This document shows, piece after piece, positions 60,001 to 63,000 of a stretch of DNA of 64,000 bases. Positions within the stretch are counted from its first letter, which is position 1, and each line of letters starts with the position of its first letter. The stretch is taken from positions 3,663 through 67,662 of the forward strand of contig JBAYVF010000003.1 of NCBI GenBank assembly GCA_041674705.1, read 5' to 3'. The position numbers are program-made. Source of the stretch: Candidatus Omnitrophota bacterium (lineage in GTDB: Bacteria > Omnitrophota > Omnitrophia > Omnitrophales > Aquincolibacteriaceae).

Positions 60001-63000
60001 TCGAAGTGACCTCCAGGTCCGTTTGCTCAACTGCCTCGATTACACCGACGAGCTTTTTCAAAAAACCTACGCTCCCATTTACTATTGGTCTGTCCGGCAC
60101 GCTCCGAACATTTGGGGCGGATCCTACGAAGTGTTGGATCACGCCTGGGTCTACCGACTGATCCGGCCGCTGCGTTCGCTCACGAACACGCTTCATGCGA
60201 AAAAACTTCTGGAGGATATTGTCAAAAACCAGCCCGATGTCATTGTCTCGACTCATTTCATGCCTCCCGAGATTTTGGGACGCGCGAAAGAAAAAGGCCT
60301 GATCCGATCAAAAATGATCTCGGTAGTTACGGATTTTTACCCTCACACATTCTGGGTCAACCCTGGGACTGATCACTACTGGGTCATGGCCGATGAAACG
60401 AAGCAAGATCTCGTCCGTCGCGGCGTTCCGGAAACGATCATCACCGCGGGCGGCATTCCTATTCTCCCGACCTTCAAACCCACTGGAAAGAAGCTTGAGC
60501 TTCGGAAAAAATACGGCCTGGAAGAAGACCGGTTCACGATACTCCTCACAAGCGGCAGTTTTGGCCTCGGCCCCCAGGAAGCGATCCTGGAAGAACTCAA
60601 GGCGTTCAAGGACAAGGTTCAATGTTTCGTGGTCTGCGCGAACAACAAAGAACTCAAAGCAATCCTGGAAAGCAAAACCTATCCTTTTCCCGTCAAGGTC
60701 TTCGGCTTCATCGATTTTATGCCGGACCTCATGGAAGCTAGCGATCTCATGGTCGCGAAATCCGGCGGGTCCACAACCTCCGAGGCCCTGACCAAGGGTG
60801 TGGTGATGGTCGTTATGGCGCCGATCCCCGGGCAGGAGACCCGGAACGTGAAACTCCTGAAAATCCGCGACGCCGCGTATTTCTTAAGCGACCCGCACGA
60901 GATCTACGGTATCGTCAAAGGGATCCTGGAGGATCCTTCAAGTTTACAAAAAAAACGCGACGCGATCGCACACTTGGCAAAGCCGAACGCTTCCGAAGAC
61001 CTCGTTAAAATGATCCTTGCCGGAAAATAATCCTCATGCCGAAGAGCGAATCTCTCTTGTTTTTGAAGTCCCTCAAAGAAGATGGCATTGAGCAGGTGTA
61101 TGTGCCCTCCAAATCGTCGCATCCCGTGATCCAATCTCAGATTCGACAAATTTTGTCACCCCCGAATGTTTTAGTCGGGGGTCTAGAAACAAAAAGTGGA
61201 TTCCCGCTTAAAACATGCGGGAATGACAATGCTTCTGCTGGAATCAATCCCGGTATCGAGCAACTCCGCAGCGAAGTCCTGAAATGCAAACTGTGTGCCG
61301 AGCTTGCGAAAACCCGCAACAAGGTTGTTTTTGGCGACGGTCATCTTCAAGCCCAGCTTGTTTTTGTGGGCGAAGCCCCGGGCGCCGATGAAGACGAGCA
61401 AGGCCTTCCGTTCGTCGGACGCGCTGGCCAGCTTCTCACCAAGATCATTGAAGCTATGGGGATGACCCGCGACCAAGTTTTTATTTGCAATGTCCTTAAA
61501 TGCCGACCGCCCCATAATCGTCCGCCGGCGCCCGCGGAAGTGGCGCACTGCCGCCCTTTTCTGAAGCGCCAACTGGAGATCATCAAACCCAAGGTGATCG
61601 TCGCGCTCGGAAATCACGCGGTCAAAGCGTTACTTCAAACCGAGCAGGGGATCTCACAGTTACGCGGCACCTTTCAGCAATATGAAGGCATCCCGGTCAT
61701 GTGCACCTATCACCCGGCGTACCTTTTGCGCAGCCCGGGGGAGAAGCGCAAGGTCTGGGAAGATATGAAGAAGGTTATAAAATTCTTGAACGCTTCCGAA
61801 GATTAGAAAACGGCACGACCATGCAGCATTCTTCTAAATTAGAGACACTTCAAATTTTCAATAACCAAGAAACAATAACCAAACAATTTCCAAATCCCAA
61901 TATTCAATTTCTGAATTTGTTCATTGGGTTCTGGTTATTGGTTCTTACTTGGTCATTGAATCTTGGCAATTGGAATTTGCCGATCTTATGAGCGAAGCTC
62001 ATGCCGTTTTGGCTCAGGTGGCGGTGCCTCTTCCGATTCCCACGGTCTTCAGCTATTTAATCCCCGAACTGCTTCTCGCGAAAGCCATCCCCGGCGTTCG
62101 CGTCACCGTCCCATTCCGCAACACCGAGATCACGGGATATCTGGTGGGTGTGGGAAAGGAGCAGGGTGATTTTTCCATGTCATCCCCGAATGTTTCTGTC
62201 GGGGATCCAGAGCTGGATTCCCGCCTTCGCGGGAATGACAAGCGAAAGAGCAAGCTAAAATTTGTACTTGAAATTCTCGATGATCAGCCCGTTCTTTCGT
62301 CCGATATGCTGCAGCTCACGAAATGGGTGGGCGAATATTACGGCTCCAGTTGGGGCGAAGCGATCGAGAACGCGCTTCCGCGCTGGGTGAAATATGGAAA
62401 AAAAGTTGAGAAGTACATTGAAAAAGCGAAGCTGAAAAATATGGGGCCGGTTAAAACGCCTCAGGAGTACACGCTTTCTCCGGAACAGGAAAAAGCATTC
62501 GAGAAGATCAAACGGGGACTCGTAGCTCGGGACTCGTCCCTCGTGAAAAACAATAACGAGTCCCGAGGAACCAGTCCCGAGTCCCGGCTTTTTAAGCCCA
62601 TGCTGATCTACGGCGTCACCGGCAGCGGCAAAAGCGAGCTTTATATCCGCGCGATTCGCCAGACCTTGAAACAGAACCGTGCGGCGATCTGCCTTGTTCC
62701 CGAGATCGCCCTCACGGAACAGCTTCAACGGTTTTTTGCCGGGCATTTCGGTGACAACCTCGAGATCCTTCACAGCAAAATGACGGACGGTGAGCGCTTC
62801 CTCACCTGGAAACGCATCGAAATAGGAACCTGCAATGTGGTGCTCGGGCCACGTTCGGCCGTGTTCGCGCCCATCCCGAATCTCGGTCTCATCATTATGG
62901 ACGAAGAACACGAGGGTTCGTACAAGCAGGAAACCACGCCGCGTTATCATGCCCGCGAGGTGGCCGCCTGGCGCGCTCAAAATGAGAATGCGCTCTTTTT

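Follow-up and report, generated by a model that had tools for sequence, protein, structure and literature searches.

The window, by which we mean the whole 64-kb stretch of DNA analysed here, comes from a Candidatus Omnitrophota MAG and contains the gene of a family-4 uracil-DNA glycosylase (UDG) and, further along the same strand, that of the primosomal protein N' (PriA). An earlier note on this DNA had proposed that a palindromic element made of two hairpins is inserted in frame into each of these two genes. The features under study are the following:

61036..61806, plus strand: host gene 1, family-4 UDG, 256 aa, with a conserved N-terminal helix, a linker predicted to be disordered and the catalytic core
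61154..61228, plus strand: copy A, 75 nt; two hairpin units tagged CGTC/TGTC, paired with their tags outward (HH dimer); it encodes aa 40-65 (LSPPNVLVGGLETKSGFPLKTCGNDN), within the UDG linker
61154..61186, plus strand: unit A1, hairpin-1 type; tag TGTC, stem ACCCCCGA/TCGGGGGT, 9-nt loop ATGTTTTAG, tail CTAG
61187..61195, no strand: spacer of copy A, AAACAAAAA
61196..61228, minus strand: unit A2, hairpin-2 type; its minus-strand reading TGTC-ATTCCCGC-ATGTTTTAA-GCGGGAAT-CCAC matches the degenerate SRM pattern
61988..64000, plus strand: host gene 2, primosomal protein N' (PriA); the gene passes the window end, and its product measures 738 aa in the source contig
62178..62240, plus strand: copy B, HH dimer of 63 nt; it encodes aa 64-84 (MSSPNVSVGDPELDSRLRGND), part of a loop in the 3'-DNA-binding domain of PriA
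62178..62210, plus strand: unit B1, hairpin-1 type; TGTC-ATCCCCGA-ATGTTTCTG-TCGGGGAT-CCAG
62213..62240, minus strand: unit B2, hairpin-2 type; minus-strand reading TGTCATTCCCGCGAAGGCGGGAATCCAG, containing the dRS3 core ATTCCC-N8-GGGAAT
Insert-encoded peptide (predicted translation): SSPNVSVGDPELDSR

Both copies lie at the coordinates first proposed, and a full-length alignment showed them to be copies of one element, whose hairpin arms are identical except for one compensated stem position, with indels in the spacer and in the second loop. The initial description was confirmed: two 8-bp stems per copy (ACCCCCGA/TCGGGGGT and ATTCCCGC/GCGGGAAT in copy A, ATCCCCGA/TCGGGGAT and again ATTCCCGC/GCGGGAAT in copy B), inverted outer ends (TGTC...GACA), lengths that are multiples of three (75 and 63 nt) and free of stops in the host frame, and a spurious opposite-strand ORF at 62053-62253 with an SFPRRRESS peptide. 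To this description we add that the two hairpins of a copy form an inverted pair of related units and are not unrelated hairpins. The tag-to-tail anatomy of the units, the connection with the NTS/SRM-Ssn system and the nucleotide conservation of the intragenic copies, treated below, also go beyond the earlier note.

Both copies lie inside translated ORFs, as the DNA on either side of them evolves like coding DNA: differences from a related genome, counted by codon position, were 4/0/8 and 12/5/68 beside copy A, and 1/4/27 and 5/6/29 beside copy B. The compound pattern GGATTCCCGC-N(3-20)-GCGGGAATGACA matched only copies A and B in the window (0.00 matches expected from 100 dinucleotide shuffles), the pattern TGTCAYCCCCGAATGTTT matched the same two sites, and pattern scans of the 64 kb found neither further copies of the element nor single units. 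A search of the whole window against Rfam at the gathering threshold gave 0 matches. A permissive Rfam scan of 61000-62700 returned sub-threshold chance matches only, and on the elements themselves just a Spot 42 fragment (E = 0.68). No known RNA family applies to the element. The same PriA gene also carries, at 62522-62568, a GTAG-tagged REP.

Anatomy and folding of the units

A unit starts with the tag TGTC, continues with a stem of 8 bp closed by its loop, and ends in a CCA-like tail; each copy is made of two inverted units with the tags facing out. The tag is TGTC in all four units of the window. All stems are of 8 bp and open with A-T; at position 2, A1 has C-G and the three other units have T-A. 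Loops are 9 nt long in A1, A2 and B1, and 4 nt only in B2 (GAAG on its own strand). Tails read CCAG in B1 and B2, CCAC in A2, and the variant CTAG in A1. When folded as single-stranded DNA (ssDNA), the four units all adopted the same form, a 4-nt unpaired tag, the 8-bp stem, the loop and a 4-nt tail, with z scores of -3.6 to -4.6, and none of 200 shuffles folded equally well. For the complete element, alternative folds are one long hairpin for copy A (RNA parameters) and a three-hairpin cloverleaf for copy B.

The anatomy was then read over 121 copies, the two of the window and those of 119 genome loci, among the matches listed; the following counts all bear on matches listed. The head is TGTC in 57 copies and CGTC in 50, and 113 of 114 right ends are GACG or GACA, so that both tags point outward. 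The tail TCCA is found in most first units. Spacers measure approximately 6 to 34 nt, tails included. Stem position 2 covaries perfectly among 109 copies (60 C..G pairs, 49 T..A pairs, 0 discordant), and at one orthologous site (locus L121) a compensatory C>T / G>A change was found.

Insertion sites and nucleotide conservation

In keeping with an insertion rather than an ancestral sequence, the insert is missing from most UDG and PriA orthologues, so that homologous residues at these positions are not universal. In the UDG linker, the element was present in only 4 of 50 orthologues (P0001, P0002, P0003 and P0009), and a further case is provided by another locus, L203. For PriA, 4 orthologues of 65 have the element in the same loop and 61 lack it; in the nearest tree relatives of the element-bearing proteins, a short turn of 8 residues occupies that loop. 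Three other sites in PriA hold the same element in other genomes, which makes four PriA sites in all. Both the UDG linker and the PriA loop contain other, unrelated families of hairpin repeats in relatives.

Predicted structures were used to see whether the inserts map to surface loops. Residues 28-67 of UDG have a pLDDT below 50, with the insert inside, and the PriA insert falls in segments 61-74 and 76-86, also below 50. Both inserts sit, as far as these models indicate, in disordered loops or linkers of proteins that are otherwise well predicted. In other genomes, the element was also found in the linker that joins the two domains of a HemD-HemE fusion, and in a radical-SAM protein, where it occupies a loop of the N-terminal domain; two giant homologous proteins (loci L002 and L031) have it at the same place in opposite orientations. 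This last observation, together with the patchy presence among orthologues, the several sites within genes, and the position of most copies outside ORFs, argues for a mobile element that was inserted.

Could the segment be instead an ancestral linker or a selected peptide module, whose palindromy is incidental? It is in frame and translated, and several orthologues of PriA and UDG share the peptide frame SSPNV.IGDP...GFPLK.CGND. More generally, the peptide signatures mentioned in the earlier note are real: orthologues and translated loci repeatedly contain SSPNV.IGDP, GFPLK.CGND, LDSRLRGND, VIPAKAGIQ and SFP..RES. A literature search with such signatures (WIPAFAGMT, VIPAKAGIQ, SFPRKRES and others) returned no match. 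We nevertheless find a peptide module hardly credible, because most orthologues do without the segment, many phyla have this DNA outside long ORFs, and the frame of the second hairpin is not the same in the two copies (GFPLKTCGND in copy A, LDSRLRGND in copy B), other proteins even using the opposite strand. The structure predicted at the insert is moreover disordered, and substitutions show no codon-position bias.

This absence of bias was seen when orthologous copies were compared. Between the window and a related locus (L120), 5 of 138 element positions differ, versus 169 of 985 flanking coding positions (Fisher p = 4e-6), and the element differences are not biased towards any codon position. 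For copy A, divergence is 5.3% in all three pairwise comparisons, versus 14-26% in the flanks. Over the three genomes compared, orthologous copies are 3 to 10 times less diverged than flanking coding DNA, and they are also far more conserved than the flanking synonymous sites. No stem carries a substitution; those observed lie in the tail next to the copy A spacer, in the second loop or immediately beyond the right tag. What stays constant after insertion is the DNA hairpin, not the peptide.

Such conservation could reflect a host function, rather than the passage of a passive element. The hairpins would then be a DNA or RNA site selected by the host, doing something for the cell instead of being tolerated junk. 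They might, for instance, be targets of Ssn, a nuclease introduced below, and so limit the entry of homologous ssDNA close to core genes of replication and repair, or be structures acting on the replication or translation of these genes. Besides the low divergence, the intact stems and the indifference to codon position, the distribution of the dimers speaks for it, as they all fall in UDG or PriA and none is intergenic, whether one takes the 2 dimers of the 64-kb window or the 4 present over the 22.5 kb of locus L203. A surplus of intragenic REPs in replication and repair genes, still unexplained, was described by Di Nocera et al. (2013, PMC3733652), and in Neisseria the NTS repeats are concentrated near particular genes and influence transformation by way of SsnA (PMC11893778). 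Still, we hold a host site to be unlikely. Most close orthologues manage without the insert, and the unrelated hairpin families lodged in the same loops elsewhere suggest tolerance, not need. Credible intragenic copies are found in unrelated genes (the HemD-HemE fusion, the radical-SAM protein, the giant proteins), gene conversion among copies can conserve them as well, and the comparison is one of three genomes.

Copies in other genomes and a GIY-YIG gene flanked by the units

None of the additional copies lies in the window; they abound in related genomes, as expected from the earlier note's proposal of a repeated element. The exact 26-base core was found in at least 119 genome stretches belonging to many phyla, mostly outside long ORFs; this set is one of exact pattern matches, and is silent on divergent copies and on totals. 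Intergenic copies exist in many phyla, with several copies each in related Omnitrophota MAGs and in many other genomes. Among the matches listed, around 83% of the copies in other genomes are outside long ORFs, and a long-ORF heuristic flagged 19 intragenic cases, several of which are spurious Arg-rich ORFs. Since this heuristic over-calls in GC-rich genomes, the true intragenic fraction is below 17%. The full-element pattern had 0 matches among viral contigs, which gives no sign of a phage origin.

No target-site duplication was detected in 112 copies: direct repeats of 3 bp or more were no commoner than chance at any boundary offset, those with k = 4 being found in 2 of the 112 and those with k >= 6 in none. 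This bears on a classical MITE, in which a deletion derivative of an insertion sequence keeps its terminal inverted repeats and is moved by a DDE transposase. Small size, numerous copies, the inverted termini TGTCA...TGACA, and the longer composite repeat in which the dimer is embedded in Binatia MAGs would all suit such an element. The inverted termini are however just 4-5 nt long and correspond to the unpaired tags of two self-folding units, the length of the spacer is very variable, and boundary repeats stay at the chance level. We thus consider an origin as a MITE extremely improbable, and assignment to the DDE-type MITEs was rejected on the lack of target-site duplication.

A protein partner was suggested by a different type of locus. 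In another Omnitrophota MAG (locus L001), an ORF encoding a 97-aa, single-domain GIY-YIG protein (PF01541, E = 9e-17) begins 6 nt past a full dimer, with more units after it. Metagenomic relatives of this protein have a unit at 300 nt or less in 66 cases out of 80, and units on both sides in 29 out of 80. Unit density is 2.47 per kb near the GIY-YIG gene, versus 0.058 per kb elsewhere, a 43-fold difference. Tags point outward around the gene, upstream units being on the plus strand in 38 of 43 cases and downstream units on the minus strand in 46 of 52.

The GIY-YIG nuclease SsnA of Neisseria has as its ssDNA target the NTS repeat (Chenal et al. 2025, Nat Commun 16:2388; PMC11893778). With 97 aa, the L001 protein is close in length to the 94 aa of Neisseria meningitidis SsnA, and its Y13/Y24/E71 spacing is that of Y6/Y17/E64, as given for this SsnA in the same paper. 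Judging from size, domain, flanking motifs and spacing of the catalytic residues, the L001 protein is a candidate member of the Ssn family (cd10448). In the window, the SRM pattern matches units A2 and B2 and nothing else (0.24 matches expected), and B2 is the Neisseria NTS consensus CGTCATTCCCGCGMAVGCGGGAATCYRG with 1 mismatch (consensus from PMC11893778). Hairpin-1 units A1 and B1 match neither the SRM pattern nor NTS. The 64-kb window has no ssn-like gene, and only 1 of the 121 element-centred loci, among the matches listed, contains one. In vitro, the Neisseria and Wolbachia homologues bind the hairpin and cut ssDNA a few nt 5' of the tag (PMC11893778). The activities established for Ssn are cleavage of ssDNA and a limit on transformation; it is not known to move repeats.

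An enzyme of another type moves the GTAG-tagged REP doublets of Pseudomonas and E. coli, and the element might be a REPIN of this kind, mobilised by a RAYT, an IS200/IS605-like Y1 HUH transposase. The inverted doublet of REPs, the long hairpin that it can form and the lack of target-site duplication are compatible with this, and the GTAG-tagged REP seen in PriA (62522-62568) suggests that a system of the RAYT type may also exist in the genome. Yet 107 of the 121 copies (among the matches listed) are headed by TGTC or CGTC rather than by GTAG. A tblastn search with E. coli RayT over 1.25 Mb of loci uncovered no true homologue, the lone match (E = 0.62) being the opposite strand of an ABC-F ATPase gene. 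Finally, the unit-flanked gene encodes a GIY-YIG protein and not a Y1 transposase, and no RAYT flanked by CGTC units was found by Di Nocera et al. (2013, PMC3733652). Mobilisation by a RAYT is therefore very unlikely, and membership among REPIN/RAYT systems was rejected, as the units are tagged TGTC or CGTC and the 1.25 Mb of loci gave no RayT homologue.

Interpretation and relation to known systems

We conclude that each copy is most probably a non-autonomous palindromic element of the REP type, an HH heterodimer of the CGTC-REP / NTS-SRM class, and give this explanation as a whole, Ssn-linked spread included, a probability of about 0.72. The pair of units corresponds to the locus of a small GIY-YIG ssn gene reduced to its two flanking hairpins, and could derive from this architecture. 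Once in ssDNA, each unit would form a hairpin, to be bound by the cognate Ssn and nicked a few nt 5' of the tag, as documented for the Neisseria and Wolbachia homologues. Nicking, followed by repair or recombination on ssDNA, might then spread or homogenise units without target-site duplication, and it is in this sense that we infer a mobilisation by Ssn. An HH dimer places two cleavable units on opposite strands, and has no obvious excision intermediate. Within genes, inserts would survive only if they are a multiple of three, stop-free and in a disordered linker or surface loop, the location observed here, and would be translated as some 21-26 extra residues that presumably have no function in the protein. 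Thereafter, it is the sequence of the DNA hairpin that is held constant, and not the peptide.

A bolder proposal is that the intragenic dimers are kept, at the nucleotide level, as working ssDNA recognition sites of a GIY-YIG nuclease of the Ssn type, the HH dimer being the non-autonomous partner of a unit-ssn-unit cassette that crosses phyla. We regard it as unlikely. If true, the CGTC-REP/RPE superfamily would have in Ssn its long-missing enzyme, and priA, udg and other genes of replication and repair would offer landing sites both preferred and of functional relevance.

As a REP-type insertion, the element is a genuine case of something already known, found in a lineage for which there was no earlier report. 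In-frame REP/RPE insertions, described in Rickettsia and Proteobacteria, are hereby extended to Omnitrophota, where the disordered linkers and loops of housekeeping proteins (UDG, PriA) have been made repeatedly from several hairpin-repeat families. Linkers built in this way matter for gene calling, for the alignment of orthologues, and for the odd low-complexity peptides of metagenomic proteins. The element also joins the CGTC-REP class of 2013, which then apparently had no dedicated transposase, to the Ssn nuclease and NTS/SRM of 2025; the earlier work is not cited in the available part of Chenal et al. (PMC11893778). With a defined heterodimer, a candidate enzyme of 97 aa, and orthologous sites both filled and empty, it offers a test case for asking whether Ssn proteins propagate or maintain repeats. 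The strong nucleotide conservation of the intragenic copies is a point worth following up.

The closest known repeats are those of the CGTC-tagged REP superfamily (Di Nocera, De Gregorio & Rocco 2013, BMC Genomics 14:522; PMC3733652), which takes in dRS3 of Neisseria and RPE-4 and RPE-6 of Rickettsia conorii, and is present in replication and repair genes. Its members have a CGTC tag (variants TGTC and CCTC), a stem of 8-9 bp with complementary A/T at positions 1 and 2 "almost invariably", a loop of 4-5 nt, and mostly a CCA tail; HH dimers, with the tags outside, are the predominant arrangement (PMC3733652). The units of the window share with them the CGTC/TGTC tag, the 8-bp stem starting with A, the CCA-type tail and the HH dimer. 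The likeness extends to heterodimers with different stems, to spacers that may have complementary ends, to in-frame copies that encode 20-30 aa, especially in genes of DNA replication and repair, and to the lack of an associated RAYT. The main difference lies in the loops, as three of the four hairpins have 9-nt loops and B2 alone fits the 4-5 nt; exceptions in loop length were noted in some species (PMC3733652). The hairpin-1 stem AYCCCCGA is placed among CGTC REPs by its anatomy, not by the consensus of any of the four published families, and Omnitrophota, Binatia, Caldisericota, Elusimicrobiota and Melainabacteria are outside the 5 phyla listed in 2013 (PMC3733652).

With the NTS/SRM system, the element has in common the 28-nt NTS consensus, which B2 follows with its one mismatch, and the fit of both hairpin-2 units to SRM. 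The NTS-ssnA-NTS architecture also has its counterpart, in the inverted units around the 97-aa GIY-YIG gene of the Omnitrophota genome and near those of 66 of its 80 metagenomic relatives. In contrast, the window has no ssn gene, hairpin-1 units are outside the SRM pattern, and the available part of Chenal et al. makes no mention of intragenic translated copies and does not use the terms CGTC-tagged or RPE (PMC11893778). REPINs and their RAYTs (Bertels & Rainey 2011; Nunvar et al. 2010) are similar as inverted doublets of short palindromes able to form one long hairpin, as non-autonomous partners of a single-copy gene flanked by the same units, and in leaving no target-site duplication; they differ by the GTAG tag and by the partner gene, which encodes a Y1 HUH transposase instead of a GIY-YIG nuclease.

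The likeness to Rickettsia palindromic elements that the earlier note had pointed out was borne out, the inserts being in frame, stop-free and in loops predicted with low confidence. RPE-1, which is longer (~100-150 bp) and of a different sequence family, was reportedly found by Ogata and colleagues in 2000 as palindromic repeats inserted in frame in many unrelated genes, and is said to be translated in surface loops with protein function kept. An in-frame, translated palindromic insert tolerated by its gene is what the two have in common. The Rickettsia comparison is more than an analogy, as RPE-4 and RPE-6 are in the same CGTC-tagged REP superfamily whose anatomy the element shows (PMC3733652), the comparison being made on anatomy and on that paper. 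By its CGTC anatomy, the element is related to the short class of RPE-4 and RPE-6 rather than to RPE-1.

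Two in-frame copies of a double-hairpin element

An earlier note had described, from the sequence, a double-hairpin palindrome inserted in frame into two neighbouring genes, and its positions, lengths and structure were confirmed. The two copies, carried on a Candidatus Omnitrophota MAG contig, and their hairpin units are listed below.

61154-61228: copy A, 75 nt, in ORF 61036-61806 (family-4 uracil-DNA glycosylase, UDG, 256 aa)
61154-61186, + strand: unit A1 (hairpin 1)
61196-61228, − strand: unit A2 (hairpin 2)
62178-62240: copy B, 63 nt, in the PriA ORF starting at 61988 (738 aa in the source contig)
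62178-62210, + strand: unit B1 (hairpin 1)
62213-62240, − strand: unit B2 (hairpin 2)

Two related units, inverted relative to each other, make up each copy. Taken 5′ to 3′ along the strand on which it lies, a unit has the order TGTC, first arm of an 8-bp stem, loop, second arm, then CCAG, CCAC or CTAG. Folded as single-stranded DNA, each gives an unpaired 4-nt tag, the 8-bp stem and a 4-nt tail (z = −3.6 to −4.6). Alternative folds of the whole element are a single long hairpin for copy A, and for copy B a three-hairpin cloverleaf closed by the TGTC/GACA ends. No Rfam family matched the element. The copies align end to end, with arms that are the same except at one compensated stem position, and indels in the pairwise alignment are restricted to the spacer and the second loop. 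The pattern GGATTCCCGC-N(3-20)-GCGGGAATGACA matched copies A and B only (2 matches, 0.00 expected from shuffles), and no further copy or single unit was found in the 64-kb window.

As the earlier note had it, both copies keep the frame and contain no stop codon. Differences between their flanking DNA and a related genome fall mostly at third positions, as in coding sequence. Since coding-type evolution is seen on either side of in-frame, stop-free copies, both must be translated.

Insertion into variable loops of UDG and PriA

In Omnitrophota orthologues of UDG, a near-invariant N-terminal segment of 23 residues is joined to a conserved catalytic core by a linker that is hypervariable and about 0-60 residues long. 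In many orthologues this linker carries other palindrome-type peptides (VILSPKDEESKSEILRQKSAQDDK, RHCEEPQRGDVAISLLKNEIASPSARND, RGQADFS..KKSACP, SLRAAETAKQSR..EIAAPHKTGLAMT). In most of 65 PriA orthologues, a turn of 8 residues makes up the loop that follows residue 57. The element occupies this loop in P0121 (the window protein), P0123, P0135 and P0137, which are spread over three sub-clades of a neighbour-joining tree, and is missing from their nearest neighbours, where only the short turn (P0124, P0126) or an unrelated short insert (P0130) is found. Further PriA sites hold the same element family, at the 5′ end (P0129, P0137) and after residue 664 (P0123, P0137, P0168). In L121, a locus from another genome, copy A is present and the PriA loop holds a different palindrome. 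Both copies map to low-confidence linker or loop segments of AlphaFold2 models: copy A (aa 40-65) within the sole such stretch of UDG (residues 28-67), and copy B (aa 64-84) in PriA segments 61-74 and 76-86, between two strands of the 3′-DNA-binding domain.

We conclude that copies A and B are insertions, not ancestral sequence, since the element is missing from most orthologues (it is present in 4/50 aligned UDGs, with locus L203 as a further case, and in 4/65 PriA proteins at the loop). That the segment is an ancestral or selected peptide is very improbable, given this absence and its reading in differing frames and strands elsewhere. A DDE-type MITE is just as hard to sustain, as no target-site duplication was found at element copies.

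The same loops receive several repeats. Common landing pads are UDG aa 25-70 (61108-61245) and, in PriA, the N-terminus and positions after aa 57, 182, 664/672 and 704; in Omnitrophota orthologues these loops are home to six or more distinct families of hairpin-type peptides, and hairpin-type inserts account for much of the difference in length among UDGs (217-285 aa) and among PriA proteins (658-849 aa). PriA-loop dimers (a dimer being one full two-unit copy) are always preceded by (E/G/K)Q(G/A/D)xFS (window 62157-62177; P0123, P0135, P0137), which resembles a separate hairpin family found alone in P0128 (GQASFSEKKMPVP); they may be nested insertions into an older repeat. The first 23 residues of UDG (MPKSESLLFLKSLKEDGIEQVYV, window 61036-61104) are nearly invariant, and residues 3-15 form a confidently predicted helix tethered by the disordered linker. 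Speculatively, this segment may be a partner-binding motif, for instance for the sliding clamp.

By their tags, Di Nocera et al. (2013; PMC3733652) distinguish two REP superfamilies, GTAG-tagged and CGTC-tagged. A second palindrome in PriA, at 62522-62568 (outer stem 62515-62585), is a GTAG-tagged REP, with GTAG, a 12-bp stem (CTCGGGACTCGT/ACGAGTCCCGAG) and a 19-nt loop, read in frame as VARDSSLVKNNNESRGT (aa 179-195); in the related loci L120 and L121 this site is occupied by unrelated sequence. With the CGTC-type dimer, the window PriA is therefore one gene with both REP superfamilies. After PriA residue 660, a G-rich insert (63945-64000, GGGRREEGASSLSPSAIH...) occupies the variable site where P0123, P0137 and P0168 have the CGTC dimer, and its PSAIHHP/GGRRxEG type recurs in other orthologues. 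The UDG-PriA spacer (61857-61960) holds an AT-rich palindrome of about 100 nt (ccaagaaacaataaccaaa / ttggttattggttcttacttgg, RNA fold z = −4.1), probably another inserted repeat family because it is absent from L120. Elsewhere in the window, a 66-nt perfect-spacing palindrome with 33-nt arms, 79% complementary, lies at 59832-59897 between genes for a HAD-like hydrolase and an MGDG-synthase-like protein. Two tandem copies of about 1.8 kb (7282-9098 and 9083-10911, 74-87% identical) are probably paralogous neighbouring genes.

Distribution and association with a GIY-YIG gene

Genomes were scanned with an exact 26-base pattern covering both hairpins, CCCCGAATGT-N5-TCGGGG-N(5-35)-GGATTCCCGC. At least 119 stretches matched in species-representative genomes, a set that is evidence of breadth and not of true diversity or counts, and none in viral contigs. 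Further copies exist in other genomes, and none in the rest of the window. Taxa among the matches listed are Omnitrophota, Binatia (many copies per MAG), Deltaproteobacteria, Thermodesulfobacteriota, Elusimicrobiota, Verrucomicrobiia, Burkholderiales, Gallionella, Thiotrichaceae, Melainabacteria (Obscuribacterium), Caldisericota, Planctomycetales, Ignavibacteriales, and cultured Iodobacter and Deefgea isolates. In MAGs JBGPGE01, DASYUV01 and other Binatia (L003-L119), the dimer shows high uniformity (76-78 nt) and is embedded in a longer composite repeat, whose left flank of about 60 nt is partly conserved and in which AAGCTGCGGGG motifs recur.

In the 121 copies formed by the 119 matches listed and the two window copies, the outer tag is TGTC in 57 and CGTC in 50, and right ends are GACG or GACA. 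Loop 1 resembles ATGTTTTTA; loop 2 either has 4 nt (TTTC, CTTC, CTGC) or resembles TAAAAGCAT. Stem position 2 covaries perfectly (C..G 60, T..A 49, discordant 0).

A long-ORF heuristic places no more than 19 of 114 copies among the matches listed inside genes, several of these in spurious ORFs. Among the credible intragenic sites are the linker between the domains of a HemD-HemE protein, a loop in the N-terminal domain of a radical-SAM protein, and one position in two giant proteins. These homologous giant proteins of an uncultured bacterium (L002, >1,400 aa) and an Omnitrophica MAG (L031, >2,600 aa) both carry a dimer just before the conserved LVTGGFH region. The position is the same and the orientations are opposite, which indicates independent insertions into one tolerant loop. 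In contrast to the copies listed from other genomes, mostly outside long ORFs, every dimer of the window (2/2) and of the 22.5-kb syntenic L203 (4/4, at 9352-12290, three in one PriA gene and one in the adjoining UDG) lies in the UDG-PriA pair, and none is intergenic.

One element-centred locus, L001 from Omnitrophota MAG nzgw330, has a gene for a GIY-YIG protein of 97 aa with a single domain (PF01541, E = 9e-17); its ORF starts 6 nt past a complete dimer and is followed by more units. The spacing of Y13/Y24/E71 in this protein equals that of catalytic Y6/Y17/E64 in Neisseria meningitidis SsnA. A metagenome scan with this protein gave 80 loci (62-76% identity). One or more units lie within 300 nt of the gene in 66 of them, and in 29 the gene has units on either side; density is 2.47 units per kb close to the gene versus 0.058 per kb elsewhere. 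Tags point outward around the gene (upstream units on the + strand in 38/43 cases, downstream units on the − strand in 46/52), and the dimer, in the HH arrangement with tags outward, thus corresponds to such a cassette minus its gene. Neither ssn-like nor RayT-like genes were found within the window. A REPIN driven by RAYT, the Y1 transposase of GTAG-tagged REPs, is quite unlikely: the tag is wrong, and no RayT homologue was found in the window or in 1.25 Mb of loci.

We favour, with a probability of about 70%, a non-autonomous CGTC-REP/SRM (Ssn-related motif) heterodimer that has an Ssn-type GIY-YIG ssDNA nuclease as its cognate protein. The dimer would insert into loops able to tolerate extra residues, and selection would then filter insertions for kept frame and absence of stops. 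Ssn presumably acts on these particular units, and may propagate or homogenise them; the element peptides would be neutral.

Nucleotide conservation and relation to known repeats

Copy A occupies the same UDG site in two related genomes, L120 (UDG and PriA 87% identical) and L203, and copy B is present too in L120. The window and L120 differ at 5 of 138 positions within the element, versus 169 of 985 in flanking coding sequence (Fisher p = 4e-6), where about 36-55% of third positions differ. Element differences are even across codon positions; they lie in the tail, in the loop or immediately beyond the tag, and none affects a stem. Copy A divergence is 5.3% in all three pairwise comparisons, against 14-26% for the flanks, and L121 shows a compensatory stem change (C>T / G>A). 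The even codon spread, intact stems and compensatory change therefore place the constraint on the nucleic-acid hairpin, not the peptide. The three-genome comparison is compatible with selection, gene conversion among copies or site-specific re-insertion. A functional site selected by the host would account for this conservation and for the concentration in UDG and PriA, but most orthologues do without the element and unrelated repeats use the same loops, which makes it a minority possibility. The finding of the earlier note is real, and its reading as a gene-tolerated palindromic insertion is supported.

The phenomenon was already known and is extended here to Omnitrophota, for which our literature search found no description of such elements. 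Its value lies in clear filled and empty sites, in bridging the literature on CGTC REPs and Rickettsia palindromic elements (RPE) to the Ssn nuclease, and in the nucleotide-level conservation and UDG-PriA clustering. Chenal et al. 2025 (PMC11893778) showed that SsnA, a single-domain, 94-aa GIY-YIG nuclease, binds the 28-nt Neisseria NTS (CGTCATTCCCGCGMAVGCGGGAATCYRG, which includes dRS3) as ssDNA and cuts nearby; ssnA homologues in different phyla are flanked by SRM, and the NTS-ssnA-NTS arrangement is insertion-sequence-like. The text consulted contains neither "CGTC-tagged" nor "RPE" and does not cite Di Nocera. Unit B2 is the NTS consensus with one mismatch, and the two SRM-pattern matches in the window (0.24 expected) are units A2 and B2; hairpin-1 units (A1, B1) do not fit the pattern.

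CGTC units have a CGTC/TGTC tag, an 8-9 bp stem starting with A/T, a 4-5 nt loop and a CCA tail, occur mainly as HH dimers, and include Neisseria dRS3 and Rickettsia conorii RPE-4 and RPE-6 (PMC3733652). The window element is like them in tag, stem, tail and dimer type, and unlike them in loop length in three of four hairpins. Intragenic CGTC units, encoding 20-30 residues, were reported notably in DNA synthesis and repair genes (PMC3733652), a bias echoed by the clustering in UDG and PriA.
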